From contig OZ287071.1 in NCBI GenBank assembly GCA_965645245.1, forward strand, positions 2,790,001 to 2,854,000: a stretch of DNA of 64,000 nucleotides, written 5' to 3'. The notes beneath the pieces are model-generated. The model did no database searches and had not been told where the DNA came from. It was given only the letters and a program-made list of their open reading frames with translations. The DNA is from Massalongia carnosa. Its lineage: Eukaryota. Shown here piece by piece: positions 1 through 39,502 of the stretch (position 1 is its first letter; every line of letters begins with the position of its first letter). The position numbers were made by a program, and so were the translations under genes.

Positions 1-500
1 AGTGAAAAAAGACGATTGATGCCGGAATGGTTGAAAATTCGAGGGGCTGGAAAAGACGCTCAGAAGAAGGCACGAGAATTTCTGACAAATGCATGAAATT
101 CTTCCGAGTTAAAAGACTCAACAGAGTACCTTTCTGCTGAATAGAAGATGAAATTGTGGCGCTGCATAGACGCAGAAGGCAGGAATAATTTTAGAGGATA
201 GAAACAATTCCTCTTGAGCACATGCCTCCCCCTTTGTTTTGTTGGAACTGTGACTGCAACAGGCGGAATAGTAGCACTGGGTAATTGATATGACTAGTTC
301 GACAAATGAGTTCTTGCACATGCAAAACAAACTGGGAGAAACGATTGACTTTCTACCACTACGTAGGGTAAAACTGCTCCTATTTATGCCCGTCTACCAG
401 CGATTCCAGAAGCTTCCATTTCCATCTCATCGGTTCCTTCTTCCGATGCGCTTTCTGACTTCATACAAATTTGCCACCGCCCCAAGCCTTTCCTTGCAGA

Positions 501-595
501 TTGCCTCAGTACCTCAGACGTGCGTGGCTCTATGAGCCGGCTAAGCCCCTCCGGGTTAGCCTATTTTCGCTAAGCCCCTTCGGGTTAGCGTCGCT
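501..595 (+). repeat. Left TIR of the Academ-like element
   Basis: TTGCCTCAGTACCTCAGACGTGCG...GTTAGCGTCGCT is the reverse complement of 12290-12384 with one mismatch seen. Weaker inverted similarity extends to ~686 / ~12227. Confidence 0.9.
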
Positions 596-1601
596 AATTC
601 CCTTCGGGTTAGCGGCCCTTTAGCTGACTACGCATGCTACGGGCGGCACATCTGAGCGCAAAACTCTGTATTTTTGTCAGATCCGGCTTATTTTGGTGCG
701 CGCTCATACAAATTTTTGGCTTAACCTCAAAAATCATCAAGAATCAAGTTGACGGCGGAATCAACTACGCGCAACGACATTTCATAAATTATGTAATAAT
801 AGAAATGATGCTTTGATATACATTCTATCGATTAATCAATATTTTAATTACATATCGATGCAAAATTGAGTCGCAATATCGATCTCGCGACGAGGACTCG
901 ACTTTGACTCGAAATTTCGACACCACCACAGCAGACTCAACGGGTCACTAGCTCCAGTTTTTCATTGTCGGCGCTTCTGATCATTAATCTGATCCTCCGA
1001 GCGTTGTTTTCGAAAGCCTAAAATCGTTGAATGTGATGAACTTGCTTGATATGCGTTTTGCGGGCTAAGAATCCAACTCGCGAATCGTCGAATATCGCTC
1101 GCGAACACATCGAAATGGACGATCCTATAGCGTCGATAACTCGCGAGCAGGTGAGGACCGTGATTTTAAGTAAATTCGGCTTTTATCCAAAGAATGAGTA
1201 AGTTGACGCTATCATGACTTTAGCACAAGATCAAAAGGATCTGATATTTATCGCCAAGACTGGATTTGGAAAGAGTATTATCTTTCAAGCTGTGACGAGG
1301 CGGCAACGGGGGGGCCTATTCAGGTGGTGAAGGTGGTGGCATTGCTAGCTATGACTATACTAGATAGACAAGACGAACACAAGGAAGAAAGCATCAATTG
1401 CTGCAGAGATTTTCCATGTAACTCCCGGAACCCATTTCCTTACCTGAATACGGTTAGCTCCCCACTAAGGCTAACGCGATACCTAAAACATTTAGCGTGT
1501 CGGGAGGTATCGCTTAGCAGAGCATCTCGCGCTCACACCATGACAGTAGCTCCCCCTTCAAGGCCTGCTTCCACGCAGGCTTTATAGCTTCAGGGTGTGA
1601 G

Positions 1602-4600
1602 CTATCGTGGCTTGGCTGGGTATCGTTGATGAAATTCTGCTACCCTTTCCTTGGCGTTAGTAACATACTCAGCATACTCCCAGGTGGGGTCGTTCCAGCC
1701 CGTCCATTGCACCAGGTACTTTAGGCGGTTTCGAAATTTCTTGGAGTCTAGAATTTCTTCAACCTCGTATTCTTCTTCGCCTTCGACTTCAATAGGTGGT
1801 GCGGGAGGGGGGATGTGATCGGGATGAGGGTGTTGCGGCACGGGCGAGAGAAGGGATACGTGGAACACAGGATGAATTTTCATGCCGGGGGGCAGCTCGA
1901 GTTGATACGCGTATTTGCTTACCACCTTAGATATCTTGAATGGACCCAGATTTTTCCAGTCAAGCTTTCGAGCAGGTCTTTGAGTACGGATGTTCTTAGT
2001 ACTCAACCATACTTCGTCTCCTGCTTGGTAACTTGGTGCTGGTACACGATGTTCATTGGCTCCAGTCTCGTACCTGGCTTGCGCGAACTTCATCTCTTCC
2101 TGTAGCACGGACGAGATATCTTGCATCTTCTTGGCGAACTCCCCTGCGTTTAGACTGGCTGGGGATCGAGAGGGCTCAATCGATTCGAATCCCATTCTCG
2201 GATGAAATCCCATCTCGGCCAGGAATGGGCTGCACCCAGTCGTCTCGGACACTACATTGTTCCCTGTGAATTCTGCCATGGGTAACCAACTTGCCCAATC
2301 GTCTTGAAGATAGTCCGTGTAGCTTCGAAGGTATTGTTCCATGGAGGCGTTTACTCGCTCGGTTTGACCGTCCGTTTCTGGATGGAAGGCCGTTGATAAC
2401 AGGCTCTTGATACCCAGTAGTTGACAGAGCTTTTTCCAAAATTCCGATACAAAGAGCACTCCACGATCCGATACTACGGTGCTCGGCAACCCGTGTAGTT
2501 TCCAAATATCTCGAAGAAAGAGTTCAGCCAGTTCCTGAGCATTGATCGTGGTGAGGCATGGAGAGAAGTGCCGTCGTTTCGATAGACGATCGACCACCAC
2601 TAATATGGCGTCGAACCCACTACTTTCTGGAAGCCCAGTCACGAAGTCCATCGAAATATCTTGCCAGCGGCGCTCCGGGACGGGTAACGGTTTCAAGACT
2701 CCCATTTTTCCTTGACGAGAGGGCTTGCTTCTTGCACAAACTTGACAATGTTGCACGTACCTTGCTACGAACTGATAGAATCGTGGCCAGTAATAGTGAC
2801 GTTGCAGAAGATCAAAGGTCTTGGCTCGACCGGGATGACCGGCTACAGGGCTATCGTGAACGGACTTGCAAAGTCTCATCTTCAGGGCGTGTGAGTCCGG
2901 AACGTATATCTTTCCTCGATAGTGCAGTCGGCCATCCATCTCTGTGCACTCTGCCAGCGAGATTTCCTTGGAGTGTCTAGCACCTGATCGTAATAATTCC
3001 AGAATTCTCATCGGAAAGAGGTCCTTTTCCAATGCTTCTTGCCATAATTCTTCCAAGGTCTTGATTTCATCCTGATCTGAGGCGATTTCCAGAGGTTCAC
3101 TTTGTTCCGAGGCTTCAACATTTTCTTCGAGAGGTTCATCTGCTAATCCGTTCGCTAGAAGTTCAAGATTTCGAGGTTTCAAGACCACTTGATGTTGAAT
3201 TTTTATCCGTGGATCATCCTCCCCCTTCGGTAGGTCTTGAGACCTTCTAGTCAGGGCGTCGGGTTTTCCACCGCTTTTCCCTGGGCGGTACATGATCTGG
3301 AAATCGAAGCGGGAGAGATACTCGGACCAGCGTGCTTGACGACGACTGAGCTGTTTCGTTGTCATGAAGTATTCGAGATTCTTATGATCAGAAATGACTT
3401 GAATAGGAAAGGCGGCTCCTTCGAGCTCGGATCTCCATTCCTCGAAAGCTCGAATGATGGCCATGAGTTCCTTGTCATAGATCTCGTAATTGATTTCCGC
3501 GGGGGCGTGTTTTTTCGAGAAGAAGGCTACAGGGCGTAGAACTCCCTCGTCATCGTACTGTGAGAGTACACCCCCCACTACCCAGTCGGAAGCGTCAACT
3601 TCTACCACGATTTTCTTTTCAGGATCGAAATGCATCAGAATGAGATCGCTAACAAATGCGTTTTTTAGCCTTTGAAACGCGGCCTCACACTCGGAGTTCC
3701 AAGAGAACACGGTCCCCTTTTTCGTCAGTTTGATCAGGGGCGAGGCAATGGCTGAGAAACCCTTGACGAAGCGTCTATAGAAATTTGCGAAGCCCACGAA
3801 AGCTTGAATATCCTTAATGTTCTTGGGTGTTATCCAGTCCTTGATCGTCTGAACTTTTCGTGGGTCCATCTTGATTCCTTTGTCCGAAATGATAAGTCCC
3901 AGGTAAGTGGTTTCCGTGACGAAGAATTCACACTTTTCTATGTCCAGTTGCAGACCTGCGGACCTCAGAGCTTCAAGAACTTTTCTTACGTGAATCTTGT
4001 GTTCCTTCTTTGATTTACTGTATACAAGAATGTCGTCGATATAGGCGGTGCAAAAGGCATCTAAATATTCTCGAAGAACGTCGTTGATATAGTGCTGAAA
4101 GGAGCCGGGCCCCCCTGAAAGTCCGAAAGGCAATACTTCATATTCGAAGAGACCGTACCTGGTCTTGAAAGCGGTCATCCATTCTTGCCCGCTCTGCATT
4201 CGTAGCTTGTTGAAAGCCGCGATGATGTCAAACTTAGAGAAAATCATGGCCTTGGCAAGACGATCTAGTGTTTCTTGAATCAGTGGTATTGGATAGCGAT
4301 TCTTGATCGTGATCGCGTTCAGAGCTCGATAGTCTACACAGAAACGCAGTCCTCCCGACGGTTTTCGGGCGAATAACACGGGCGAGGAGCAGGGCGAGGA
4401 GCTGGCACGAATAAATCCTTTGGCTAGGTTTTCTTTCAAGTATTTCTGCAAGACTAGTAGTTCAGGAGCTGACATCTTGTACAGCGGGCCTGACGAGGGT
4501 ATGGCTCCTTCCTTGAGAACGATTTTATGATCGTAGGAGCGGTGCGGGGGTAGTTTATCGGCTTCTTGCTTGGAGAAGACGTCTAGAAGATCGTGAAATT

Positions 4601-5546
4601 CCACGGGCACTATACTGGCGGGATCGATGATTTTCTTGGGCTTCAAGGACTTGGCGATATCTTCGAGGGACGAGGCGGAGAGATTGACTTTCTCTCTCGG
4701 ATTTCTGAGTTGTTCAAGGGCTTTGTCAATTTCATACATGGAAGCGGTGAAGATTTCGTTCTTCCGGTCCTTCATCAGGGTCGAGAATGGAGCGGCTCCA
4801 ACCATGTAAATGCTCATAGGTGAGGGATCGGGAGATTCCGTGCAGACCGTCATTGGTCGTGCGTTCGAGATCGGTGGCTCAAGAAGTGTTCGGGATTCAG
4901 GACTTGAAGGAGCGTTTAATACACTGACTTCGAGAGTTCTAGGAGTCGAGCGAGAGACCTTGTTCTCACTGACTTTCAGGGTTTCAGGAGTTTTCATACA
5001 AGAGACCTCGTTCTTGCGTGATTCGACGGTTTTCAAGGACAGGGACGAAGCGGACTCAGGAGTCCCTTCAGATGGATCAGGAAGGCCAGAAATGACAAGA
5101 GGGACGTGTTTATTCTCTAAACACTCCTGGAAACAGTACGTGGACGAGAAGGTCAGGGTATTTTCAGTCCAGCTGACGGAGGGGTCATGAATTTGAAGCC
5201 ACTTGACTCCCAGGACGACAGGATAATGACCCAGTTGGGTAACTAAGAACGAGCCTTGCTCGGAATGACGGTTTATTCGCATCCTTGACTTGATCAGATG
5301 AGTAAGTTTTCCGGCCGCCGCGGGGCGACCATCGACTACTTCGAGGATACGAGGACGGACAAGAGGGGTGAAAGGCAGGGAATTGTTTCGCGCGAAGGAT
5401 GAATCAATGAATGCGTAGCCCGAGGCACCGCAATCAATCAAAGCATGGGTGTGTATAACTCGATTTTCCACAGAGAGTGCTATAGATATGACACAATGTC
5501 TACCGTCTAACGAATCTTCTGAGAGAGAAAAGGCTGAAATCGACAC
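1602..5546 (-). CDS. pol: Gypsy Pol (protease, RT, RNase H, integrase, chromodomain), probably expressed by frameshift from gag
   Basis: LIDCGAS, YIDD, VDASD..NYEIYDKEL, GHPG..C..C, DFVT..SDRG..GQTE, HPVFHVSLL, YEVEEILD..YLVQWTGW. Confidence 0.97.
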   Translation of the reverse strand: MSISAFSLSEDSLDGRHCVISIALSVENRVIHTHALIDCGASGYAFIDSSFARNNSLPFTPLVRPRILEVVDGRPAAAGKLTHLIKSRMRINRHSEQGSFLVTQLGHYPVVLGVKWLQIHDPSVSWTENTLTFSSTYCFQECLENKHVPLVISGLPDPSEGTPESASSLSLKTVESRKNEVSCMKTPETLKVSENKVSRSTPRTLEVSVLNAPSSPESRTLLEPPISNARPMTVCTESPDPSPMSIYMVGAAPFSTLMKDRKNEIFTASMYEIDKALEQLRNPREKVNLSASSLEDIAKSLKPKKIIDPASIVPVEFHDLLDVFSKQEADKLPPHRSYDHKIVLKEGAIPSSGPLYKMSAPELLVLQKYLKENLAKGFIRASSSPCSSPVLFARKPSGGLRFCVDYRALNAITIKNRYPIPLIQETLDRLAKAMIFSKFDIIAAFNKLRMQSGQEWMTAFKTRYGLFEYEVLPFGLSGGPGSFQHYINDVLREYLDAFCTAYIDDILVYSKSKKEHKIHVRKVLEALRSAGLQLDIEKCEFFVTETTYLGLIISDKGIKMDPRKVQTIKDWITPKNIKDIQAFVGFANFYRRFVKGFSAIASPLIKLTKKGTVFSWNSECEAAFQRLKNAFVSDLILMHFDPEKKIVVEVDASDWVVGGVLSQYDDEGVLRPVAFFSKKHAPAEINYEIYDKELMAIIRAFEEWRSELEGAAFPIQVISDHKNLEYFMTTKQLSRRQARWSEYLSRFDFQIMYRPGKSGGKPDALTRRSQDLPKGEDDPRIKIQHQVVLKPRNLELLANGLADEPLEENVEASEQSEPLEIASDQDEIKTLEELWQEALEKDLFPMRILELLRSGARHSKEISLAECTEMDGRLHYRGKIYVPDSHALKMRLCKSVHDSPVAGHPGRAKTFDLLQRHYYWPRFYQFVARYVQHCQVCARSKPSRQGKMGVLKPLPVPERRWQDISMDFVTGLPESSGFDAILVVVDRLSKRRHFSPCLTTINAQELAELFLRDIWKLHGLPSTVVSDRGVLFVSEFWKKLCQLLGIKSLLSTAFHPETDGQTERVNASMEQYLRSYTDYLQDDWASWLPMAEFTGNNVVSETTGCSPFLAEMGFHPRMGFESIEPSRSPASLNAGEFAKKMQDISSVLQEEMKFAQARYETGANEHRVPAPSYQAGDEVWLSTKNIRTQRPARKLDWKNLGPFKISKVVSKYAYQLELPPGMKIHPVFHVSLLSPVPQHPHPDHIPPPAPPIEVEGEEEYEVEEILDSKKFRNRLKYLVQWTGWNDPTWEYAEYVTNAKERVAEFHQRYPAKPR

Positions 5547-5578
5547 AGGGACCCCTTCTGAACGTCTTCGGGGGCGAC

Positions 5579-6862
5579 TTAGCCCGAAGACGACGCGTTT
5601 TCCGAGACCTCAGCTAGAGAGGACTCGTTCAGCCGAGAGGTTCGCGGCTTGGTTTCTCCCTTTCGAGGGCAGACGGCCGCAAAATGTCCTGACCCCCCAC
5701 AGTAGCGGCACAACCCTTCGTTCATCCGACGGGTGACTTCTGCTTGAGGTAACTTACCTCTGTGTGTGGCGGAGAGGTCCATTGGCTCGGCGGCCGGAAG
5801 GGGAGACGGGGAGGCGGCGGAAGAAGAGACGGATCGGGGGAGGGCGACTCCTCCCGACAGGGGGTTATGAGGGGGGGTCCCCACACCAGAAGAAGGTGGG
5901 GCGGACCGGGGGGGGTATGGCTTCCGGAGGGAAGCATTGACATTCCGTTGGCGGGTGTCTAGCCGTTGGAGGAGGGTCACCAGTTCGTCGAGGTCCTCGG
6001 GAGTGATTTGGGTAACCATGAGCTGCTTCAGCTCGTCACTGATGCCTTCCAGCAGAGCTGAGCGCATTGCCTCCTCGTCGAAATTGGTATCCGGGGCAAT
6101 ACGCTGGAAGTCCGAGAGGTAGACATGGAATTCCTTATTGGCCTGGCGCAGGGACCGCAGTTCCCGCTGTGCCGTGGCCTTTTTGTCCGGGTCCCCAAAG
6201 GCCCTCTCCAACATAGCCAATAACCCTGCCACATCGGGGATACTCACTTCGTTGTGAGACTTGACGTAGGGTTGCACTTGCGCCATGGCACGACCCTCTA
6301 AGCGGCTGATGGCGTACAGAAGGCCGGCTTTGGGATTCGTGAAACGGTCTTGATTCACAAAGAGCTTCAGGTTAAGCTGGGTGACCCACTCGCGCAACTC
6401 GTCCTTCTTGCCCGAGAACTTCGGGATGTCCGGCAATTTCTCTGAGCGCGCCTCGCGCTGGGCGGTGGGTTGATGATGATGGTCACTGATCTGCTGACGG
6501 AGGCTGGCGATGGTGGCTCGAGAGGCGATGTTCTCGTTATTGGAGGTCTGCAACTGGCTACGGATATTATTATGCTCAGCTTCCAGAAAGTCATACTGAT
6601 TTGATTTTTCCGTTAGAAAGCCCTGAAGGGTCGCTGATCGGTTGGCGGACTGAATGGCCTGATGATACCATTCATGAGGGAATTTTTGGACCGATTGACT
6701 CCAGGCCTCAATAGATGCAACATGAGGGGCGAGAGAATCCTCGTCATCGAAGCTTGGGGGGGAAAGGCCAGGACTTGATTCGGAACGGGGCGTGGCTATC
6801 TTGGACGAGGAACTGGAAGCCATACTAAAGAGGTGAATGAGAAACGAGGAACGGAGCACCAC
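5579..6862 (-). CDS. gag: Gypsy Gag
   Basis: PKFSGKKDELREW retrotransposon-gag motif and CRYCGGSGHFAAVC zinc knuckle. The likely ATG is at ~6823. Confidence 0.93.
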   Translation of the reverse strand: MVLRSSFLIHLFSMASSSSSKIATPRSESSPGLSPPSFDDEDSLAPHVASIEAWSQSVQKFPHEWYHQAIQSANRSATLQGFLTEKSNQYDFLEAEHNNIRSQLQTSNNENIASRATIASLRQQISDHHHQPTAQREARSEKLPDIPKFSGKKDELREWVTQLNLKLFVNQDRFTNPKAGLLYAISRLEGRAMAQVQPYVKSHNEVSIPDVAGLLAMLERAFGDPDKKATAQRELRSLRQANKEFHVYLSDFQRIAPDTNFDEEAMRSALLEGISDELKQLMVTQITPEDLDELVTLLQRLDTRQRNVNASLRKPYPPRSAPPSSGVGTPPHNPLSGGVALPRSVSSSAASPSPLPAAEPMDLSATHRGKLPQAEVTRRMNEGLCRYCGGSGHFAAVCPRKGETKPRTSRLNESSLAEVSENASSSG

Positions 6863-9206
6863 CTGAACACGGGTGAGGTGTTCGTAATGTGACGAGGCGG
6901 CAACGGGGGGGCCTATTCAGGTGGTGAAGGTGGTGGCATTGCTAGCTATGACTATACTAGATAGACAAGACGAACACAAGGAAGAAAGCATCAATTGCTG
7001 CAGAGATTTTCCATGTAACTCCCGGAACCCATTTCCTTACCTGAATGCGGTTAGCTCCCCACTAAGGCTAACGCGATACCTAAAACATTTAGCGTGTCGG
7101 GAGGTATCGCTTAGCAGAGCATCTCGCGCTCACACCATGACACAAGCTATGCCATTAATGTTCTCTTGTCTTAAGATCGCTTTAATTATCATGCCTCTCA
7201 AGACCTTAGAAGCTCAACAGTGCAAGAAATTGAGCGTTATCGAGGGATGCAAGCCTTTCGTGTTGGACGGTGATAGTAATAATTCTTCTAATTTAAAGTT
7301 AATTCGTGAAAACAATTATACGCATGGTGTGTATTCAAATTATGATTGAGATAAATATAAAAACTTACTCGTTAATATGAATAGTTTTTACTAGCCCAGA
7401 GATAGCGACGTCAAAGCTGTTTAATCAGGAGGTTCTGAGGCATCCAAGTTTCTTCTTGAATTTATGTCTTTTAGCTCTTGATGAGATGCATCTTGTATCC
7501 GAATGGCGAGATTTCCGGCCCGAATACTTCAATCTCGGTGTGCTTCGTACACGATTACCAGATGGTATTCCTTTTCTGGGTGCGTCTGCAACGCTGGATC
7601 CAAGAACCCTAGAGAGCGTTAAAGATCGCTGTGGCTTTGATAACGAAAGTACTGTTATTCAAACAGCGCTTGATCGTCCAGAGATATACATACAGACAAG
7701 CAGTCTACAGCGGCCTATGAACAGCATGATCGATCTTCAACATCTTTTACCAACACGGGCTGAGAGTCCTTTTGATATTCCGAAAACGATTATCTTCATG
7801 GATTCAATTTCATCTATCAAAAAGGCGTGTGCGCTAATGAAAGTATGGATGAATCAATTGTCCTATCCAATTGAGGCTGCTAGTTGGGTCGCGCCTTTCT
7901 TTTCCGACATGGCCACCCAAGACAAAGAAAGGATTGCGGCTCGCTTCGAAATGCCCTCGAATCAATGTAAATTTCCTCGAATCCTGATCGCAACGGATGC
8001 ATACGGGCTTGGTATTGATAATCCAGACGTTATGAGAGTTACGCAATGGCTGCTACCCTCGTCAATGGCGAAGCTATACCAACGTTTAGGTCGTGCTTTG
8101 CGTTGCGGTCGAGGACAGGCGCATTTTACTCTTTTGCATCCTTCTTGGTGCATGGGTCCAAGAAGCGGATCAAAAATGGACGAACAGGACGGATATGACG
8201 CGGGAATCGAGATTGAATCCAAGGCCAGTAAACGCCGCATCAATCAAAAGGATGCTGATCGGCGACGAGATATGCCACCGGGTCTTTGGGAGATAATCAA
8301 TGTGCCTTCAGATGGTTGCGTTCGAGGTATTGGCTTGAATTTCTTCAATGATAAAGTGTATCCAACGTCGGCCTATGTTAAGCCGCAACCTTGCTGTTCA
8401 ATTTGCGATCCAAGTTTTCAGACATCAACAGCCGCCAATGAGATGTTAAATAGAACGGCCGAGCGTGACTCGTCTAGGCGGCCTTGGTTCACCCTTAAAC
8501 TTCGAGAATGGAGGGAGGCCAAGGCGCAGGAAAAGTTCCCAAATTCACATATGCGATACTTCCCATCATTGATAATGCCCGATGAGGTACTGAATTCTTT
8601 GACCACTTGGGCGGATCAGATTGTGGACGAGCCCACCATGCGGCGATGGATTGGTAACACATGGACTGGTATTAGGCCCTACGGCGCCGAGCTTTTAGAA
8701 ATTTTAAAGCGGGGTCAAGCAATGAGATTAGACGAGGGAGACATGTTCGAGGAATGGAAACGACACAACGACATAAAGAGAAAACGATTACCCAGCCTAA
8801 CATGCAACTCCGCCAGTATTGAATTTGAGGAACGGAGGAAAAACTGGATGATCAAACAAGGATATATGTCGAGAAAGGTTTTTAAAAAGCGAAATGCGGT
8901 CAAGAAGAAAGTCTCGAAGGAAAGCGAGAGCACGGAGCCATCGGGCGAGAATCCTGCGCCTAATCACAATATCTCCGATGCGGCGCTCGTTGTTGACAAT
9001 GTTGATGCTCTTAAATCATCGATGAAGGCATCAAAGACCAAAAAAGCGCCTCGAGATCCTATGGAAGCGTTGTCGCTGAATGTACCCATGGCCCTTCCTC
9101 CGACACGATCTAGACAAGAAAGAAAGTGCCCCGTCCGCTACCTCTGACTCTGTAAAGCCGCGCGGCGCGGATTTACATGACTAGGCTATCTCGTGGTATC
9201 GATGAT

Positions 9207-11885: not shown

Positions 11886-12289
11886 GGCTTTCGTCAGATA
11901 GCTTCAATCTAGATAAATCATACAATACCATTGATTGGCCGTCGTTATTCATATCATCATGATCTTTGTAACTCAATGTAATCGCGCCACATGAAAATAA
12001 TCAGTTCATCAACCTCAAAATTGAGCGAAAGCGAACAATTTATCACTTAATCGACTTTCACATCGCTTTTCTTAGCCTGACAGTAGTTATAACACATGAT
12101 TATCGAGTCATCCATCTTGAGAGGTGCGTTTTTGGTATAAAATACAGTCTCTGGTAAACTAATACGACCCTAATCATTGTATTAAATCCATAAAAGGAAT
12201 GGTTGCACTGCTAAAATTTTTATTACGCGGATCTGGCCGTAATTTTGAGTTTTGCGCTCAGACGTGCTATCGCACTGATGTTAGTCAGC

Positions 12290-12384
12290 AGCGACGCTAA
12301 CCCGAAGGGGCTTAGCGAAAATAGGCTAACCCGGAGGGGCTTAGCCGGCTCATTGAGCCACGCACGTCTGAGGTACTGAGGCAA
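12290..12384 (-). repeat. Right TIR of the Academ-like element
   Basis: Reverse complement of 501-595. Confidence 0.9.
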
Positions 12385-12696
12385 CTTGCCGAGTGTAGAT
12401 GCAAATTGCTTTGTCAGCTGGTTTCGGTACTTGGCATCGGTTGCCGTTTTAACATGTTTCATTCAAACAATTTCATATGAACGATTTTTCCCTCGATTCT
12501 TTCCTGACCGTTCTCCAATATCTGCTGAAACAAATCCTTATCCTGACTCTTTTTAAGCCAGCCCAAAAACATCGGTTGATCTATCATTGCAATTCCTATC
12601 TCGGGGACGCTGTCGAATCGCGACCGCATCAGTTGCATGTCTCCTATTTCGTCAATCACTCTCTTCCTATTTCATCAACCGCTCCCCACCTCAATC

Positions 12697-12987
12697 ATGA
12701 ATTGTAGCAGCATCATGAACAATGACTTTATTAAAACTAGTGATTCTATTGCAACGCGCGTGCAAAATGCTAAGCAGTTTTTATTAGAAAACCCCAAGGA
12801 GAGCATCGTTTGCGCTGCTCGAATCTTCAACCTTGTCGACACCACTCTATATAGTTTAATTGAACGTGAAAAGACGCCACTGAAGCCAACTGAAGGGCAG
12901 AACAAAATACTGGAGGAGCATCAGGTCAGAGCCATTCACGAATTCATTCGATCTCTGATTGCGTATGGCATTCAACCTACTCATAAA
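12697..12987 (+). pseudogene. pogo/Fot1-like transposase N-terminal fragment (psq HTH and start of CENP-B HTH)
   Basis: SIVCAARIFNLVDTTLYSLI...GQNKILEEHQ...GIQPT; cut by an LTR at 12988. Confidence 0.65.
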
Positions 12988-15900: not shown

Positions 15901-16671
15901 GAAAAGATAGGCGAACTGGAAGCCTTGTATGGATGCCCGGTTAACTTGGCTCAGCATGAGCTAAGTTCCCTACTACCAGACCTAGCTCCCGTAGCCTATC
16001 ACGTCACACTGGTAGAAATGGCGGATGAGTTCAAAAATAGGCTCAAAAAAGCATACGATGATGACTAATATTGGGAAAAGATTTTAAACCTAGTAAAACC
16101 AAAGGAGAGCGACCTGTCCTCAATCAACGAAGGTGAGGCAACCGAATTGACGATCGACAATTCCACCCCACCAGAAGGCTCCCGCCTTGGAATTTGCTTT
16201 CGCTATAGAGATGGATTATTATACTACGTATCAGCCGACGATGGGCGAGAGCGATTATGTATACCCGCTTCCCTAGAGGAGGAGATCTTCAGGCAAGCTC
16301 ATGACAGGACCAGTCATGGTGGCTTTCATAGAACCTATGATCGGATAGTTAACTCGATCTACATACGTCACCTCAATAAAAGATTGAGAACGTACATAGC
16401 GCATTGTCCGGAATGTCAGTTGAACCAAACCAAGAGGCACGCACCATATGGAGAACTCAATCCCATTGTCACTCCGGCTATGCCCTTCCACACCATAGCA
16501 ATGGATTTCATAGTGGCATTACCAGGGACGCCTCCAGACTGGTATGACAGTCTTCTCACCATCACTGATAAGTTCTCAAAAAAGGTGCTATTGCTACAAG
16601 GAAAGACCACTTATGACGCAGTCCAATGGGCCAACATAGTCATTGTGGCGCTCTTACAACATGATTGGGGC
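12988..16671 (+). mobile_element. Deleted and truncated Ty3/gypsy element
   Basis: The first ~360 bp match the solo LTR at 32126, then jump into pol. Motifs CLDSGTS, FMDD, DLDAS..NYWPTELE, HGGF..CPEC, MDFI. Several stops and frameshifts; ends at ..QHDWG inside integrase. Confidence 0.88.
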
Positions 16672-17022
16672 TATTGGAATTTGCCGAGATACCTGAATAT
16701 TTGCGACCGAGGTTCTTTTGCCTCCTGCTTACTAATTTCCAGATTAGGCAATCATATGCTATATGCGAAAAGCTTCAGATATCGGCACGACTTCGGCAAC
16801 TACAGTCGACTGCAAAAGGTTGGTCGCGACCCTGAATTTGGGACCACACATCAAATATTTACGCGAAAATGGCAAAATGCCGGCAAAAATCCGAATAACT
16901 ACCCTCACCGCCTACATGCCAATGAAGTCGTACTACTGGTCAGTATTGAAGCGACTTGTAGATTAGTATATGTAGATGCCATTCCCCGTCTTTTTCCCTC
17001 TCTCCTCTGCCATTTTCCCAAA

Positions 17023-18067
17023 ATGCCCCCCCCTCTCAGTGAGACCCTTCGTGAGACAATCACGCTTCGTTTTGTACGAGATGACAGCAATAAGACAATT
17101 GCATCTGTCACTGGTGTTGGCATCAAACAGATTCAACGAATGAGACGTAATTGGACTCATTTTGGAGATGTGGTTCTACCTCAATTGTCAATTGGACATC
17201 GCCCTCGTAAACTCAGTCAATTTCATGAGATTGAACTTCTGAAATATCTGGAGCAACGTCCGCATGCCTATCTGGATGAAATGTGCTGGTTCATTTGGGA
17301 CGGATTTCAGATCTCTGCAGATGAGACCACCGTTGGTCGTGCCCTAAAAAGGCTTGGTTGGAATCGAAAGAAGGTGATCAAACAAGAAGCTCAAAGAAAT
17401 CAAGGCCTTCGAGATGGATGGATGCAGAGACTCGGAGAATGGACTGCAGAGCAATTGATCTTTTTGGACGAAAGTGCAGCTTGCGAAAGAACCGGTTATT
17501 TCCTATCTCATCTTTCATCCCATCTTCGTCATTTTTCTCACTTTCTGACTAGGTGATCGACGATACGGATGGGCTCAGGCAGGCGTCCCTCCAATCATGA
17601 TTCAGGATTTGAAAAGGTCAAAGAGATGGAGCATTCTTCCTGCATTTACCGTCGATGGATATATAGCTTGGGAGGTGCATCAGGGCTCCATAACTGCCGA
17701 AATTTTCAACGACTTCGTTCGAAATCAGGTTCTTCCTCAGACGACTGCCAATGGAGGTCCTAGATCTGTTTTAGTACTAGATAATGCCAGCATTCATTGG
17801 AATCAGGAGCTTATTCAGATGTGCGAGACAGCCAACGTCACCTTGGCACGACTACCTCCTTATTCTCCAGATTTCAATCCAATTGAAACGTCGTTTGCAT
17901 TGCTAAAGGCATGGATTCGACGGAATGGAGAAATGAGTCTTTCGTACACGGAGGAGTATGGGGGATTCGGACAATTTCTTCGGGATGCAGTCAAAGATCT
18001 GAGAATGGGAGACCCCGGAAATTTATTTAGATTGGCTGGCATTCAGTATCCAACCATTTCAATCTGA
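17023..18067 (+). CDS. Tc1-like DD34E transposase (intron 17495-17552)
   Basis: N-terminal HTH region; FLDES, VLDNASIH, LPPYSPDFNPIE with 34 residues between D and E. The spliced frame is open. Confidence 0.92.
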
Positions 18068-18082
18068 TTAGATACATAGTAT

Positions 18083-20248
18083 CTAATCCTCATCTTCATC
18101 TTCGGCATAATCGTATTCTAGACTATGCGTCTCATCTTCCTCAATTGTATCTCTCACTCCAGATCCTACCTCCCCGCCCCCGTCCACCTCCCCATCCTCC
18201 ATCCCCTTATCCACCCGAGTGACCGCCTGAGTGACCGCCTGAGTAGCCATTTGCGATGTCGGTAAATGGCGTTGACGCCGAGGGGGAGGCGGGGGCATTT
18301 GCTGAGATATCTGTCGAGACATTTGTCGAGACATTTGCAAAGGCATTTGCCGAAACATTTCTCTTCCAAATTTACTGACGTCTCGCGCCAGTTGAATCCC
18401 GATTCCCGGAGGAATTCCTAGTTCCTGCCAGAACGTCTGATGCTCGATGCCTTTCAAGGATTGAACGGTCATCAGATCGTACCCACCTTCCATCAATCGA
18501 TCGCAGGCGTTGGTGAGCACTCCTTTCAAATGAGGCTTCATTTGAACGAGCCAACTGACATAGTCTTCCAGATCTTCTTCCACTGGACTGCTGCGGGCGA
18601 TGGAGGGGAGAGGGAGAAATCGACTCACGCTTCGACTGCTTCTGGATGATCTCGAATCTCTCCAATCCAACGGCGTTTCCTCACGGGCTCGTCTCGAGTC
18701 AGGTAATGTAGAAGGAGCATACTGAGAAGGATAAAATGCCGAGGGGGGAAATGCCGAGTGAGGAAATGCCGAGGGGAATGCCGAGGGAAATGTCGAGGGG
18801 AATGCCAATGACGAGGGGGGAAATGTCGAGTGGGGGTTTTGGTACGAGTGGTGTTGATACATGGGATGTTGATAAATGGAATGCCCACCTCCAAAGGGCA
18901 TTTCCTGAGACGAGGTTTCCTATTTTGGAGATGATGATTCAGTCTTTTTCTTACCTTTATTCAGGGAGAATAAATTCTCTCTGATCTTCGGTGGAGGTGT
19001 TCAAGAATCAACGCCTGAAATTCCATCATCTAGTGCTTTATTCCAGGTCACGAAATGAGCACTGTTGAGAGGATAATGCTGATTCTTCGTCTCATCATTC
19101 CAACAGTACTGTCCGAAATTCCTACATGCGTGTTTTTCACAGAGATGCAGACTTTGCAATTCGGACATTCTTTCGGCCGTCATGCCTTGCAACATGGCTC
19201 GTTCCTCCATCTCTTTTTGCAGCTTCATGGTCGCGGTTCCCAATTTCTTGGTGGCGACAGCTGTGGCAGCAGCAATAGGATCATCGGGAGGAATGACGCC
19301 ATCTTTGGTACGACTGAAGTTGAAAATAAGATCAACCGCGAAGCTTTTCTTTCGAATGCTGCTGTCTTCTAAATGAATTAGAACCTCCTCAATGGGCTGC
19401 CAGGATTCGATCAACATGAGAGCTGATTTTTCATGCGGTTTTATTCCATTCCATAACACGGTCGCTTTGATATCGACCAAATGACAAGCATACATTTTGC
19501 AATTCGCATACGTCTCGGCTTTCAAACTCATGTCCCCGGTGTAGCTTCTCAAAAAGAATCTTTTCGACGTAGTTGAATTGACTTCGTATGGAATCACCGT
19601 CTCGAAAAACGACGTGCTTCTCATACGACATCTTCACATTTAGTAGATATTTGATTACCATCGGAGGCAGTGGCGAAGGGATAAACGGGAGGGTTCCTTT
19701 CTTCTTGGTTTTCTAGACTTCTTACTGACAATCGAGTTACTAGGCACATTGAGATCTTCGACATCATCTTCGGCATCATCTTCGGAATCATCTTCGGCAT
19801 CATCTTCGGCATCTACAGCTTTCATCGCGTTCTCCTTTCTCCACTGACCCTGCCACCTCTGCTTCTCGTCTTCATCCGTCCAGTCGTCGGAGGAATCCTC
19901 CGTAATGACAAGGGGACTATAATAATTCGATTCGAAAGTCTTTGACTGCTGAGGCTGGACCTTTGACTTGGGAGGGGCCTTTGGCTTGGGAGGGACCTTT
20001 GGCTTGGGAGGGGCCTTTGGCTTGAGGGGGGCCTTTGGCTTGAAGGGGGGCTTTGACTTGAGGGGAGGCTTTGGCTTGGGAGGGGCCGGCGTCGATTCCG
20101 GCGAGGCTTCATCGATGCCGGCGGCGACAATGGCTCTGGCTCTCGGCCCTCCCAAAGTCAGTTTGATTCTCTTACCTTTGAAAGGCTCTTTTCCAGCCGG
20201 GGGGGGGCCGGAATTTGATCTTTTTGCTCTCGGTTCACAAAGTTTCAT
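18083..20248 (-). pseudogene. Uncharacterised second gene inside the Tc1 element (~700 codons)
   Basis: ATG at 20248 just inside the right TIR; probable short intron 19658-19617. ORFs 19001-19624 and 18083-18901 share a frame and are separated by TGA and TAG codons. PK-rich repeats, acidic tract, C-x4-C-x6-C..H..W motif, SAM-like C-terminal region. Confidence 0.7.
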
Positions 20249-20605
20249 ATCTGAGGTAAAAAATGGGGAATGGCAGAGGGAAAAAAGACGGGGAATGGCA
20301 TCTACATATACTAATCTACAAATCGCTTCAATACTGACCAGTAGTACGACTTCATTGGCATGTAGGCGGTGAGGGTAGTTTTCAGATTTTTGCCGGCATT
20401 TTGCCATTTTCGCGTAAATATTTGATGTGTGGTCCCAAATTCAGGGTCGCGACCAACCTTTTGCAGTCGACTGTATGGATATCATTCAGCCGCGCAACAA
20501 TAACAGCTTGACTGATGCTTTCTATACCACTCATTTCCAAAGCCAGCCTCTGCAAATTCCTACCAGGCTAGTTGTACAAGTCGAAGAAAGCTAGGACCTT
20601 CTATC

Positions 20606-23600
20606 ATGCCAGATAAAGATTTATGCCTATTATCTCTTGATGGTGGTGGAGTGCGAGGGCTATCGTCACTCGCAATCCTCAAGCGACTGATGGAGATCAT
20701 CAATCCGGATGCGCCGCCGAAGCCATGCGAGTATTTCGACATGATCGGAGGGACAAGTACCGGTGGATTGATTGCTATCATGCTAGGTCGTCTTGAGATG
20801 AATATCGATGAATGTATTGATGCCTATGTCGCATTGTTCGATCAAGTGTTTAAAAAAAAGCGGCATCGTGTCACAATAAACGGACACGTGCAGGGGAGAT
20901 TCGACACGGAAGAGCTGGAACGGTCGATTCGAGAAATCGTAAAGCGGAAGGAGAAGGCAGGGGAAAATGCTCTCCTCAAAGGATCAGAGAATCAGCAATG
21001 CAAGGTGTTAGTGCTTCGGAAGTTGCATTTACACGTATAATTCTAGTGATACTAATGAAAGCTAGATTTGTATGCGCTCTGAGCAAAGAGACTGCCGACA
21101 CAGTCCTTTTCACATCGTATCCTTCTCGAGGATCATCAGATATGTACCATAAGACACGAATTTGGGAGGCAGCTCGAGCCACATCTGCCGCATCATCCTT
21201 CTTTGATCCAGTTAAAATTGGCCAGTTTGAAGAAGAGTTTGTCGATGGGGCTGTGGGGGCTAACAATCCTGTCGCACATCTTTGGAACGAGGCCAAAAGT
21301 GTGTGGTCAGATGAAGTGCTTGAGGGAAACATCAAATGCCTGATATCTATCGGTACCGGTGTTCCATCCTTGGATTCTTATGGCTCAAGCCTCTTCGAGA
21401 TTGCAAAAACATTGAAAGACATTGCAACAGAGACAGAAAAAACAGCGGAGTCTTTTCATCGAGCGCATTCCGATCTCGACGATGGGAATCGCTACTTTCG
21501 TTTCAATGTTTCTCATGGACTTGAGAGTATTGGACTCGAAGATGCAGCACAGAAGAACAAGATCATGGCCGCCACAACCCGCTATGTGGCTTTGGAAAGC
21601 GTGATGAAACAAATGAAGCTTTGTGGAAATAATCTTTCAACACGAGAATGTGCGTCAATGTTTGCTTGATAATTCTTGAGTTACTAAATCCTTGAATAGA
21701 TAATGGTTCATATAAAGTGCCGTTCAGTTTGAAAGGCTTACTCCCTGTACCCAAATTCATAGCTCGTGATCAGGAAATGAATGACCTCAAGAATACCCTT
21801 TTCCCAAAACCAACTCGTGAGACTCGCCGGAAGGTGTTCGTTTTGCACGGACTGGGCGGCTCCGGCAAGACTCAGCTAGCAATCGAGTTCGCTCAAATAT
21901 CAAAGAAGATTTTCAGTTCTATTTTTTGGCTAAACGGTGATAGTAAGGAAAGTGTAAGTCAAAGTCTTGCACAGATTGCTCGGCAATTACCCCCAGATCA
22001 GATTCCGGATTCATGTATAAAATTCTCTAAAACATCCCCTGAAGAGCTAGATGAAATCATTAGCAATATTCTTATTTGGTTCAGTCGACATGAAAACAAT
22101 CAATGGCTTCTCATTTTCGATAATGTAGATCGTTCCCTTGAGGTAAATGATCCTCAATCATATGATGTGAAAGATTTTTTCCCGGAAGCCGATCATGGCT
22201 CTATTTTAATCACAAGCCGATTACGACAACTTTGACAACTCGGGCAGGACCGGCAACTTGGAAGGATGAGCGATCTACAAGGAGTAGAAGTATTACGATG
22301 CAGGATTGGACGATCAGTTGAAGGTAATGAAATTCAAGCAACAGTCTAAATCCAATTTACTAAGCATTATATAGGCCTTGATAGGATCGTCGAGAAAGTG
22401 GGTGGTCTCCCACTTGCACTTGCTCATGCAGGCTCCTATATCCACGGAACGACTACAAGTGTGAACGACTATATTCGATACTATGAAGAGACTTGGGAGA
22501 AGCTTCACAACAACAAAACGACTCGATTAATAGATTATCCTCGTAGCATTTTATCTACGTACACCATTTCCTATGAACATGTGCAACACAATGACGCGAG
22601 CGCTGCAAAATTGCTTAATCTGTTTGCATATCTCGATCATTCAGATTTATGGTATTCTTTATTCACACCTATACTTGACGAAGACGAGAGCATTATCCCA
22701 AAAGAGACATTACCTATCTGGTTTTCAAGTAGCGTGAAGACGGAATTTGATTTTACACAGAAGATTCAAATACTGCTGGATTACTCCTTGATAGAAACAC
22801 GATATGAGATCTCATCTTATGCGATTCATCCAATTATACATGACTGGTGTTTTCACTTGAATCTAACCTCTAACGACGAGATAGCTTCTTTAGCAGTTTC
22901 TGTAATTGGTTCCGCATGTCATTCCACTGGCAGTTCAGCAAACTGGCTGCATCGAAAACGACTGGCTGGTCATTGTAGTTATGTTCACTTCTGGATTGGA
23001 AAAAAACATCAAAACCTCGAAAGGAATATGAGATGGGAACAGGTACTATATCCTTCGTATCATGCTATTGGCTATTTTTCAAACGAACAAGGTAAGATGA
23101 ACGAGGCCGAAGAGATGTATCTGCGGGCATTGACAGGATACGAAAAGGCCTGGGGTCCTGATCACACATCAACGCTCGACACAGTCAACAATCTAGGAAG
23201 TCTGTATGCAGATCAAGGCAAGATGAACGAGGCCGAAGAGATGTATCTGCGGGCATTGACAGGATACGAAAAGGCCTGGGGTCCTGATCACACATCAACG
23301 CTCGCCACAGTCAACAATCTAGGGCTTTTGTATAAAGATCAAGGCAAGATGAACGAGGCCGAAGAGATGTATCTGCGGGCATTGACAGGAAAGGAAAAGG
23401 CCTGGGGTCCTGATCACACATCAACGCTCGACACAGTCAACAATCTAGGAAATTTGTATAAAGATCATGGCAAGATGAACGAGGCCGAAGAGATCTATCT
23501 GCGGGCATTGACAGGAAAGGAAAAGGCCTGGGGTCCTGATCACACATCAACGCTCACAACAGTCAACAATCTAGGGCTTTTGTATAAAGATCAAGGCAAG

Positions 23601-23921
23601 ATGAACGAGGCCGAAGAGATGTATCTGCGGGCATTGACAGGATACGAAAAGGCCTGGGGTCCTGATCACACATCAACGCTCAACACAGTCAACAATCTAG
23701 GAAATTTGTATAGAGATCAAGGCAAGATGAACGAGGCCGAAGAGATGTATCTGCGGGCATTGACAGGATACGAAAAGGCCTGGGGTCCTGATCACACATC
23801 AACACTCGACACAGTCAACAATCTAGGAAGTCTGTATAAAAATCAAGGCAAGATGAACGAGGCCGAAGAGATGTATCTGCGGGGCTCAAGCGGCTTTCCT
23901 GTGCCAGGTATGACATTCTAG
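20606..23921 (+). pseudogene. Fungal NLR: patatin-like phospholipase, NB-ARC, TPR (PLP-1-like architecture) with one in-frame TGA
   Basis: DGGGVRG, GTSTG and DGA patatin motifs; GLGGSGKT, LIFDNVD, ILITSR, GGLPLAL. Introns 21007-21065, 21650-21699, 22324-22374. TGA at 22233-22235. 42-aa TPR repeats. Confidence 0.92.
23088..23883 (+). repeat. 126-bp tandem repeats, ~6.3 units, encoding TPRs
   Basis: Units start at 23088, 23214, 23340, 23466, 23592, 23718, 23844 and are nearly identical. Confidence 0.97.
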
Positions 23922-24433
23922 GCAGGACAAGGCCTGATGACATATTCAAACGTCAAAATGAAATCAAATCAATACCGTCTGAAAGCTAGTTGAATCTTGC
24001 TAGCAATGGTGGCATTGAAATTCTATCGTTCAGCTGAGAGGGAACTTGAAGGTAAGGGGCGCAGGGGCGCAAGGTGTACGGCGGAAGTTTCAATTTCTTG
24101 GCATCTTGTCTCGCTGTGCCAAATCGGATCTAATAGGAATTGAAAGAGAGTAGGGATTAAAAGGGAGTAGTGATTGAAAAGGGATAGAGACTAAAAAGCC
24201 CCAGTCATTTTAAAGCCTTGGGCATTTTTTCTGACTGAAGATATCATGTTTCACAGGAGTTTAATATCGTTTTTTGATATTGCTACTATTGTACATAACG
24301 GTCTAGATAGTGGCCCTAAGGATAAAACCATTATCTCTGACTTTATGTGTGTTGCGACGAGATGCTCTCCATCTATAACGCGGTACATGTATGATTTAGG
24401 CTGCCATGTTAGATGAATATTAGATGGAGGCAG

Positions 24434-24631
24434 CTATCCTTCGTAAGAATACAGTGATTGATAGGTAAGGTCAGCATACGCACGATTGCCCCCGAAGTGA
24501 GCGACCCAAGTCTGACCTGTCCATGGCCGATGATCTGGTCTATGATGATGAGTCTTTAGACAGAAGGGACATTGTACGTATACTCCTAGGCTATTCCATC
24601 CGGTCGCTGTTGCAAATGGTACGGTAGCCAT
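24434..24631 (-). pseudogene. Possible 5' fragment of an unknown gene with a CPFC..HHH motif
   Basis: MATVPFATATGWNSLGVYVQCPFCLKTHHHR; short, no continuation resolved. Confidence 0.25.
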
Positions 24632-25292
24632 GATTTTGAAGACGGGATGTTGCGAGGGAGTAGAGGAGCCGAAATTGGGAGCTAGAGCGATACGAGAGTT
24701 GATGCTGATGATGACGCAGCAGTCATAGGCTACAAGGAGCGAAGAACCCATAAGAACCCGAGATGGTCATGAGACTTACCATTCGACGCATCGAAAACAG
24801 CAGAAGGGTATGGAATTAGTCAAGCTCGATGCCGAACCGAAGCTTTTCTATGGGGAGGCAACTTATTATGGCCGCTAGTAAGGCGGTGACCTTAAAGGAA
24901 TTTATGTAACCAATCTGCACGCAAAGGCCGAATGACAGTCAAGTGGGCGTCTTGTGAACTAACTCCGCAAGGTTCTGCAAGTGTATTGTGCTTGTCAAAA
25001 CATCTTGACACCTTGGATGAGGGCATGCGATCGGATGACCGTCTTGGTGATGACGAAGGTGTTTACAATGAAAGTGCTTTTTCAGATCGTAGCGGATGTG
25101 GAAAGACTTCAGACGTGTCTCGGTGGATAGCGCTACACAGCCGAGGCAAAAGATACATTGAGTGGGTTCGCATTCAATCGGGATGGAGTCTGAAAGAGAG
25201 GCTGGATCGAGGACAGATGGTGGTGTTAGACGCCTTCCTTGACGACCGACGTGGACGCTTGCCTTCCTGCAAGCGACAAAGGGCTGTCAAAG

Positions 25293-25592
25293 TGTTGGAA
25301 CTGTGACTGCAACAGGCGGAATGGTAGGTAAGTGATATGACTAGTTCGACAAACGAGTTCTTGCACATGCAAAACAAACTGGGAGAAACGATTGACTTTC
25401 TACCACTACGTAGGGTAAAACTGCTCCTATTTATGCCCGTCCACCAGCGATTCCAGAAGCTTCCATTTCCATCTCATCGGTTCCCGCTTCCGAAGCGATT
25501 TCTGACTTACAAATTTGCCACCGCCACAAGCCTTTCCTTGCCGAGGTAGATGCAAATTGCTTTGTCAGCTGGTTTCGGTACTTGGCATCGGT
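25293..25592 (-). repeat. Second copy of the LTR at 240, truncated by an Academ TIR ~13 bp before its end
   Basis: Colinear with 240-500 joined to 12393-12441, with scattered differences. Left flank CAAAG differs from copy 1. Confidence 0.88.
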
Positions 25593-25682
25593 TTGCCTCA
25601 GTACCTCGTGCGTGGCTCTATGAGCCGGCTAAGCCCCTCCGGGTTAGCCTATTTCGCTAATCCCCTTCAGGTTAGCGTCGCT
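25593..25682 (+). repeat. Third Academ TIR (left orientation); no partner seen in the window
   Basis: TTGCCTCAGTACCTCGTGCGTGGCTCTATGAGCCGGCTAAGCCCCTCCGGGTTAGC...GTTAGCGTCGCT matches 501-595 with small indels. Confidence 0.9.
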
Positions 25683-25847
25683 ATAATTCCGCGCCATCCC
25701 AAACTCATCACTCGATGAAATATGGCTTGGAAAAATGGCTATAGGTGACTCTAGGTCCAGTCGCTAACTTTAAGTTATAGAAGGTATCGGGAAATCGGTT
25801 CTCACGTGCGTGCACTTCTTGTATTTCACAAAAGTAACTGAATCTCA

Positions 25848-30953: not shown

Positions 30954-31301
30954 TCTCATACAGCCCAGATCCCTTGTCATTGATTCTCTACAGAAAGCAA
31001 CAAGGAGCAAAGACGTAGGCCTTGCGTATATCTACTGCAGCTACAAAGAAAGGCAAAGGCAATCATCAAGCAATCTAACAGCAAGCCTCCTGCAGCAGTT
31101 GCTCATGCAACAACGCGACATACCCAACAATGTAATAGCTCTTTACGAACGGCACACCAGGATCAAGACTCGGCCATTGCTGAATGAGTATCTACAACAT
31201 CTTCGAGCTGTTATCGACGACTTTTCACGAGTCTATATCATAATCGATAGCCTAGACGAATGTTCAGAAGTAAATTCAACACGAAGCAGTTTTCTTGCTG
31301 G

Positions 31302-31418
31302 TGTGACGAAGCGAGATAGTGAATAGATTTCTACCATTGCGCTACCTGTCCTTCCCGACCAAAAGGCACAATACTTAGTCCGCAGACCAAGCTCTATTCT
31401 ACTATAACTGGGACTCCT
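31302..31418. repeat. Probable LTR stub that truncates the NACHT gene and is itself cut by the next copia
   Basis: The NACHT frame breaks at TGTGACG; no second copy seen. Confidence 0.45.
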
Positions 31419-39476: not shown

Positions 39477-39502
39477 CGGTTCGGAAGTAACGCCGGCGAC
39501 AG

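Follow-up and report, generated by a model that had tools for sequence, protein, structure and literature searches.

A plausible AcademH-type DNA transposon family in contact with two copies of one long terminal repeat, and a possible preference for end-like target DNA

Few superfamilies of eukaryotic DNA transposons have received as little study as Academ. Its AcademH lineage, reportedly set out by Kojima in 2020 (Mob DNA 11:15), is reported from fungi (rusts included), molluscs and cnidarians. The element described here, E1, is plausibly of AcademH type and lies in a 64,000-bp stretch of Massalongia carnosa (assembly GCA_965645245.1, contig OZ287071.1, positions 2,790,001–2,854,000; hereafter the window, whose own numbering is used throughout). 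It occupies a solo long terminal repeat (LTR), and a second copy of the same LTR, empty at that site, runs into another terminal inverted repeat (TIR) of the E1 family. Passages in PMC10045372, PMC10799480 and PMC8290104 present AcademH elements as helicase-encoding transposons of animals and fungi, and the relevant passage of the first gives a target site duplication (TSD) of 9 or 10 bp. Pfam contained no Academ family in 2017, and the text of a profile named RNase_H_Academ is in the supplement of PMC5751038. The literature searched, which did not cover the original AcademH description (Kojima 2020), yielded no statement on a target preference of Academ. Nor were biochemical data for Academ found in it.

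In bacteria the IS30 transposase targets inverted-repeat ends, inserting within or next to DNA that looks like the termini of its own element; any parallel with the present case would be one of behaviour only, IS30 being prokaryotic with a transposase of an unrelated family. Double insertions and tandem dimers of the P element in Drosophila have an 8-nt TSD between the copies, which the relevant part of McGurk and Barbash (2018; PMC5932611) reads as repeated insertion at a preferred site. Mutator-like elements (MULEs) with tandem TIRs form a structural subgroup, and MULEs prefer low-copy genic DNA, according to the introduction of PMC3903597.

The LTR copies and the transposon ends that meet them are listed here, site A being the point of E1 insertion and site B the position in the LTR that corresponds to the 25593 joint.

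235–239 (no strand): left copy of the TSD of solo LTR-A, TGTTT, with the right copy at 12455–12459 (direct reading)
240–500 (+): 5′ part of LTR-A, starting TGTTGG, 93.0% identical to 25293–25541 (self-BLAST)
493–500: left copy of the E1 TSD, CTTGCAGA, the last 8 nt of the LTR-A 5′ part
501–12384 (+): E1, AcademH-type DNA transposon of 11,884 bp, recognised from TIRs, open reading frames (ORFs) and Pfam matches
501–595 (+): left TIR of E1, with tip TTGCCTCAG and repeated near-palindromic GCTAAGCCCCTYCGGGTTAGC units
12290–12384 (−): right TIR of E1 (self-BLAST and tip scan)
12385–12454 (+): 3′ part of LTR-A, ending GGTTGCCGTTTTAACA; its first 8 nt, CTTGCCGA, are the right copy of the E1 TSD
25293–25592 (+): LTR-B, the second LTR copy, empty at site A and missing the last 12–13 nt of the LTR
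25593–25683 (+): TIR3, truncated orphan TIR from a second copy of the family (~92% identical to the E1 TIRs), its tip directly abutting LTR-B

LTR-A is a solo LTR with TG..CA termini (TGTTGG...TTAACA) and TGTTT on either side, and it measures 323 bp after subtraction of E1 and one copy of the E1 TSD. LTR-B is ~93% identical to it (96.8% between 12385–12445 and 25537–25597 by self-BLAST) and is intact across site A, with a single CTTGCCGA at 25537–25544, before it passes into the TIR3 tip at 25593, 44–52 bp beyond site A along the aligned LTR. BLAST finds only these two copies of the LTR in the window, of which they make up ~1%, and neither Rfam nor a tRNA search detected a small-RNA or tRNA gene in the region of the LTR. 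The initial annotation had described this arrangement, with E1 in a solo LTR bounded by TGTTT and a second copy that is empty at the first site and joins a TIR in the same orientation further on, and its account holds in every coordinate. TTGCCG is likewise present at both sites as it had reported, within the E1 TSD at site A and, for site B, in GGTTGCCG at the equivalent place of LTR-A. The 8-bp TSD of E1, its nested gypsy element and the truncated, orphan nature of the TIR at 25593 are additions to that account.

E1 is reduced to 6,027 bp once a nested gypsy element and its TSD copy are subtracted. The 95-bp TIRs (501–595 against 12384–12290, inverted) are 98.9% identical in self-BLAST and contain repeated near-palindromic units of 21 bp, with weaker inverted homology extending beyond the left TIR to ~685 (646–685 against 12267–12228, 80%). 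TIR3 matches the left TIR directly at 92.7% (501–596 against 25593–25683, self-BLAST). In a scan of the window the 15-nt tip TTGCCTCAGTACCTC has exact matches at three places, 501 (+), 12384 (−) and 25593 (+), and two more with 2–3 mismatches, where 1.43 are expected by chance. The TSD of E1 itself is 8 bp, CTTGC[A/C]GA, with CTTGCAGA and CTTGCCGA agreeing at 7 of 8 positions, or 9 bp if the right joint lost one C; the 9-bp TSDs of a sister family, described below, suggest that the 8-bp form is natural variation or reflects a lost base.

Two convergent genes occupy the interior of E1, one of them split by the gypsy insertion.

1202–1290 (+): start of the helicase gene, an ORF with motif I (TGFGKS), interrupted by the gypsy insertion
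1291–7142 (−): nested Ty3/gypsy LTR retrotransposon with 255-bp LTRs 99.6% identical and TSD CAAGC
7148–9147 (+): remainder of the helicase gene (C-terminal half of DEAD, Helicase_C), in frames 7148–7346 and 7381–9147
9207–11903 (−): DUF6589 gene, a predicted DDE transposase gene (PF20231, 2.7e-62) with two in-frame stops

When the gypsy element is removed by script the helicase ORF of 1202–1290 resumes at 7148–7346, which is probably separated from 7381–9147 by a short intron; with Pfam matches to Helicase_C (1.3e-11) and DEAD (5.4e-5), it is the separate superfamily 2 (SF2) helicase gene expected inside an AcademH element. The gypsy element has open gag and pol frames and accounts for about half of the length of E1. 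Contigs of four public runs (X6, X7, X9 and X1) were aligned to window positions 6001–26000, and the joints and loose ends reported here are among those listed. Some contigs represent gypsy-free E1 copies, recognised by a loose end before 7143 that equals E1 1261–1290, and in X7 the gypsy-free helicase contigs have ~4x the depth of a neighbouring single contig, a rough figure that is not a copy number.

The DUF6589 protein is ~890 residues long, and DUF6589 is its sole Pfam match, so that no chromodomain or other tethering domain is found by Pfam. The stop TAG at 10728–10730 is probably intronic, to judge by homologues, which skip this stretch, and by database gene calls, which commonly break there. 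The TAA at 10401–10403 is a true nonsense codon, in place of a residue that all eight aligned homologues have. An AlphaFold (AF2) model built from 45 sequences (predicted local distance difference test 83.4, predicted template modelling score 0.80) has the predicted fold of a DDE RNase-H transposase with an insertion domain. The top nine Foldseek matches are all Hermes (best E 1.8e-3), and VIA-align matches include the P element (Z 9.0, root-mean-square deviation 5.7, 359 residues), Hermes (8.4), ISCth4 (8.3), Tn5 (7.6) and RAG1 (7.4). The tool itself cautions that Z values of this size are middling, but the list is uniform, the best 32 rows all being DDE transposases or recombinases, and because of this uniformity the modelled DUF6589 protein is most likely the E1 transposase. 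E1 itself is unable to supply its own proteins, because its helicase gene is split by the gypsy insertion and its transposase gene contains one nonsense codon or more. The TIRs of E1 are intact, and the element is dependent on proteins in trans.

Judged by its sequence, E1 plausibly represents a new AcademH-type family in a lichen-type ascomycete. The assignment is based on architecture and TSD length and not on transposase homology to Academ references: like AcademH, E1 is bounded by TIRs, pairs a transposase gene with a separate DEAD/Helicase_C helicase gene and has a fungal host, and the 9-bp TSDs of the sister family fall within the reported 9–10 bp. The closest DUF6589 homologues (43–63% identity) are labelled Teloschistes and Icmadophila, both lichen fungi, and the public runs that best match the window include a lichen metagenome. 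A phmmer search of the full library gives 1,184 DUF6589 relatives at E ≤1e-3, structure-atlas look-alikes with a DUF6589 label belong to molluscs, cnidarians and Mucoromycota, and a rust-fungus preprint counts DUF6589 among enriched domains, a spread like the one reported for AcademH. TIR pattern scans of metagenome and genome contig collections gave 0 matches.

Metagenome contigs searched with the transposase alignment contain a distant sister family at 17 loci in two samples, with ~25% protein identity to the E1 transposase. The loci were selected for the transposase gene, and we counted the insertion events ourselves. The sister element is multi-copy and ~11.2 kb long, with a transposase and a helicase gene that converge as in E1, and is so decayed that the reference copy is without an ORF of at least 150 amino acids. 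Its termini are TTACCTCAGCAAGCTCAGAC, against TTGCCTCAGTACCTCAGACG in the window; the tip reads TTACCTCAG..CTCAGAC in the sister and TTGCCTCAG..CTCAGAC in the window family, with TTRCCTCAG..CTCAGAC in common. The 27 sister ends used comprise 26 plus L017 15651, and L008 949 was dropped as the sequence inside its match is unlike family ends. All seven paired elements have a 9-bp TSD (9/9 in four, 8/9 in three), and together with 13 single ends they make 20 insertion events, of which five lie from 8 bp outside to ~80 bp inside the terminus of another copy.

L010 8255–19383: in positions 9–17 of the TIR of a short element, TSD T[A/G]AGCTTGC
L013 595–2172: at about position 70–78 of another left end, TSD CCTTTTTTG
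L017 15651: 44 nt inside the end at 15607
L017 11811: ~80 nt inside the end at 11891
L003: two ends that face each other, 8 bp apart

Terminal 100-bp zones constitute ~0.9% of the 261,839 bp concerned, giving a binomial p of ~1e-6 for five events of 20, and no event falls in internal family DNA although family DNA makes up 47% of the total. The nested flanks are cleanly separated from 400 random non-family 100-mers used as a control, and both 9-bp TSD copies are in view for two of the five. TSD-bearing insertions are thus concentrated at resident ends in the sister family, and this nesting is the strongest sign that such elements may integrate at end-like DNA.

Several other candidate signals in the sister family were set aside. 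Further flanks that looked TIR-like by eye were rejected by the control, the extra match (the L002 right flank) being AT-rich and of low complexity. Among 5-mers in 26 flanks CTTGC ranks top (4 against 0.37 expected, uncorrected p 5e-4) but fails correction for 1,024 words, and three of its four occurrences come from flanks that are themselves TIRs. The flank of a short sister element, Z, has a 14-point local match to the LTR around site A (p = 0.017 against shuffles, uncorrected for six tests), which was taken as chance. The sister family also includes a short non-autonomous derivative of ~1.4 kb (L010 6892–19400, TSD 9/9 CTACTTGCC), and a 60-nt orphan TIR stub at L017 11891 parallels TIR3.

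The window family is present in all four public runs, and in X6 the tip at 12384 is also joined to other DNA, with one such joint in X7. The first joint leads from the tip through GAATTTGCCGAGATACTGCGACCGA to window position 16729 onward, in DNA homologous to a decayed gypsy pol from 16677 onward, where the window itself holds the unoccupied counterpart of the insertion site.

16677–16688 (+): unoccupied paralogue, GAATTTGCCGAG, of a third family insertion site that is occupied in run X6

The second joins the tip to a tetratricopeptide (TPR) repeat near 23362; its joint letters are unread and no motif was derived from it. The third, in X7, has the tip and CTTGC followed by the LTR from its fourth base (12389 to 25296), in one contig with 23 nt on the shorter side and with the intervening letters unread. 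The LTR is not the exclusive target of the family, because the tips of other copies are joined to non-LTR DNA. The initial annotation had proposed that the transposon uses retrotransposon LTRs as a safe haven, an idea that unrelated flanks at other TIR copies would contradict; such flanks exist in part, as gypsy pol-like DNA and a TPR repeat, and targeting of the LTR as such is not supported.

The X6 flank and site A share a motif. At site A the tip is followed by C and then TTGCCGAG, and at the non-LTR site in X6 by GAAT and then TTGCCGAG, 4 nt from the tip. The 8-mer TTGCCGAG occurs six times in the 64-kb window, counting both strands. Within −14 to +9 nt of window positions the base rate is 1.1% for TTGCCG and 5.3% for TTGCC, and p for the X6 flank is ~0.01 with the 6-mer and ~0.002 with the 8-mer, the latter a value that we calculated from the counts. 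Two copies of TTGCCG, whose TTGCC is shared with the transposon tip, lie within the final 70 bp of the LTR.

The DNA that follows TIR3 differs from the interior of E1.

25684–25847 (no strand): DNA unrelated to E1, of which the right part is a degenerate P-loop (GIGKSVL) of a NACHT-type gene fragment
25848–30957 (−): young copia LTR retrotransposon with 190-bp LTRs 99.5% identical, TSD TCTCA and a 1519-amino-acid open frame

Family homology is lost after ~88–91 bp of TIR3 (~25680), and other copies, in X7 and X9 contigs (two of the four runs), continue past ~25679–25680 with CAGCTGACTAACGTGG, which is E1 sub-terminal DNA. Downstream of TIR3 the window has no inverted copy of the tip at up to 6 mismatches, no TSD for TIR3 and no LTR tail GCCGTTTTAACA, GGTTGCCGTTTTAACA occurring in LTR-A alone, and a sensitive BLAST of the window found no further E1 homology. 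The NACHT-type fragment resumes after the copia element (NPHP3_N, 8.9e-19 for 30946–31326, profile positions 40–149 only) and is 5′-truncated, without its first 40 profile positions. The sequence leads from the end of TIR3 through ~160 bp of unrelated DNA and the copia element into the 5′-truncated NACHT-type fragment; the TIR3 element is therefore truncated, and adjacent DNA was lost along with it. Contigs with two other joints, 12404/25617 in X6 and 25554/25618 in X7, have the LTR to ~18 nt past site A and then about the last 25 nt of a TIR of the TIR3 subtype, read tipward; these could preserve what is left of the absent right end of an element borne by the LTR.

The arrangement could be explained as follows. 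The DUF6589 protein, as a DDE transposase, would bind the 95-bp TIRs through their repeated 21-bp near-palindromic units, excise the element and link its tips (TTGCCTCAG) with target DNA cleaved at an 8–9-bp stagger, with the convergently encoded SF2 helicase as a putative accessory protein. E1 would have inserted in this way into solo LTR-A, and a second family copy, ~8% diverged, would have been joined to LTR-B by transposase, through ordinary insertion or intramolecular transposition. The remainder of the TIR3 element and the tail of LTR-B would have been lost afterwards, an order of events that we infer; an ordinary insertion at site B would place GCATCGGT-TGCCGTTTTAACA (TSD plus LTR tail) after the right end ...GGCAA. 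The two TTGCCG copies in the last 70 bp would attract the family while the LTR itself would not be recognised, and the same LTR would have been struck twice most likely because this pair shares TTGCC with the transposon tip. We regard this explanation as a whole, with an AcademH-type element that prefers end-like DNA and has made two LTR contacts, as evenly poised between right and wrong. The best available reason for the double contact is a preference for DNA that resembles the ends (TTGCC, resident TIRs); this part is based on one independent flank and a distant sister family and is held tentatively, at somewhat less than even confidence. The observations suggest tethering of the transposase to end-like target DNA; the more specific proposal that the AcademH synaptic complex is so tethered, and that copies home to the terminal ~80 bp of residents and to TTGCC pseudo-ends, is doubtful.

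Several observations weigh against the explanation. The X6 contig is the sole flank independent of the two sites already known from the initial annotation, and the joint contigs have about a tenth of single-copy depth (for example ~430 against 4,433 in X7) and may be minority insertions, the main-copy flanks not being among the rows listed. The motif stands at varying offsets from the TSD (positions 2, 5 and 8) with no fixed target consensus, and the window has five more TTGCCGAG sites that hold no insertion. Local alignment of the LTR with the E1 ends shows no similarity (p = 0.6, 300 window controls), and the LTR has no significant match to the first 60 nt of either family's TIR. In the sister family the non-nested flanks are without end-likeness (p >0.1 for 19 of 27 flanks), and TTRCC is only marginally raised in them by a count made by eye. 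The E1 TSD, at 8 bp (7/8), also departs from the 9–10 bp of AcademH. The preference for a TIR-like motif that the initial annotation had offered beside LTR targeting gains some support from the recurrence of the same 8-mer at the X6 flank and from the nesting in the sister family, and is suggested but unproven.

The double contact could also be coincidence in a transposon graveyard, with near-random insertion, survival in gene-poor repeat nests and a post-hoc pick among scanned windows. The window is densely filled with nested elements (gypsy, copia, Tc1-like, pogo-like, DIRS-like), non-LTR DNA flanks other copies of the family, the non-nested sister flanks share no motif and the LTR is unlike the TIRs. 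However, two joints 44–52 bp apart in a 323-bp unit, where the two LTR copies are ~1% of the window, have a chance of roughly 1e-3 to 1e-4, an independent flank repeats an 8-mer with only six occurrences in 64 kb, and sister insertions cluster at resident ends at p ~1e-6; coincidence is in our judgement a somewhat unlikely account. Less likely again is an origin of the 25593 joint without transposase, by deletion or by TTGCC microhomology end joining, which would leave only one true LTR insertion. TTGCC is common to LTR and TIR exactly at the joint, TIR3 has neither partner, TSD nor LTR tail, which allows a transposase-free origin and so also counts against our explanation, and its truncation at ~88–91 bp beside the 5′-truncated NACHT-type fragment indicates that deletions did happen there. 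The initial annotation had taken absence of a partner TIR and TSD at 25593 as a mark of a deletion or recombination product, and within the window both are absent. Nevertheless, the joint lies at the first base of the tip, as expected of transposase chemistry and unlikely for a random break, with site B cut between GGT and TGCCG. A plain cut after GGCATCGGT yields the joint sequence without an indel, whereas microhomology predicts GGTTGCCTCAG and the actual sequence is one T longer, so that joining through the shared TTGCC needs that extra T; orphan TIR stubs beside full ends also occur in the sister family (L017 11891). Because the break is exactly at the tip and no indel is required, a transposase-made joint, by insertion or intramolecular transposition and followed by deletion, is favoured.

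LTR-directed integration, in which the transposase or a host factor recognises the LTR family or its chromatin as a safe haven, is highly improbable. It would account for the two LTR contacts in the window, for a possible third in X7 (12389 to 25296) and for the additional LTR-to-TIR joints on opposite strands in X6 (12404/25617) and X7 (25554/25618). However, at least two other tips are on non-LTR DNA, 19 sister flanks outside the family's own ends share no repeat family, and neither a tethering domain in the DUF6589 protein (Pfam) nor a small-RNA or tRNA gene in the LTR was found. In a target-specific element most copies would lie in one target, and here tips are found on non-LTR DNA and the LTR is without an RNA gene.

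Among described elements the P element offers one comparison. The L003 ends are 8 bp apart, about one TSD, and the P-element enzyme is the nearest solved transposase in the structural search (Z 9.0); however, P dimers have a head-to-tail arrangement and a GC-rich consensus of 8 bp, whereas the abutting sister ends are head-to-head, most nested insertions lie inside a resident TIR, and no TSD consensus is evident. MULEs resemble these families in their long TIRs, a TSD of the 9-bp class and extra TIRs stacked at ends, although tandem TIRs are presented there, in the passage cited above, as a structural subgroup and not as evidence of target choice.

The remainder of the window contains further elements. 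A fungal NOD-like receptor (NLR)-type gene at 20516–23921 has a patatin-like N-terminus, an NB-ARC/AAA_16 middle and a TPR_10/TPR_12 C-terminus with tandem 126-bp units ~94% identical (23081–23883); its frames are broken between domains, by introns or decay. A Tc1/mariner-like element (16801–20475; DDE_3, DDE_1) with ~200-bp TIRs 98% identical lies within the decayed gypsy pol of 14873–17556, and in all four runs contigs pass 16803 with a shared ~30-nt sequence unlike the window, which could be its empty site. At 33151–42518 a young gypsy element (34719–41375; 485-bp LTRs 99.8% identical, 1288-amino-acid open pol) is nested in a copia element whose reverse transcriptase is at 33151–34778 and integrase at 41469–42518. 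A pogo-like DDE_1 transposase (44978–46489) lies between 75-bp inverted repeats 98.7% identical (44361–44435 against 47221–47147) in an element at 44361–47221. The retroelement at 50711–55512 looks DIRS-like, with reverse transcriptase/RNase H by a weak tyrosine-recombinase (Phage_integrase) match, and is flanked by 364-bp direct repeats (50892–51255 and 55150–55512). An abundant unclassified repeat of 300–390 bp (12988–13348 and 32126–32518; 88–97% identical) reaches a very high contig depth, summed over bin 12671–13337, in each of the four runs.

The analysis yields a curated AcademH-type family in a lichen-type fungus, ties Pfam DUF6589 to a DDE transposase fold and shows a TIR tip conserved between families whose transposases are only ~25% identical. 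A preference for end-like DNA, if true, would mean that Academ elements home to transposon ends, a mode that is not known to have been described for this superfamily. Stacked TIRs and orphan stubs, which complicate the annotation of repeats, would then be explained, as would repeated insertions in one small repeat. The preference would also provide a testable rule for Academ landing sites and a eukaryotic example of a behaviour that has otherwise been seen in P elements and in insertion sequences of bacteria.

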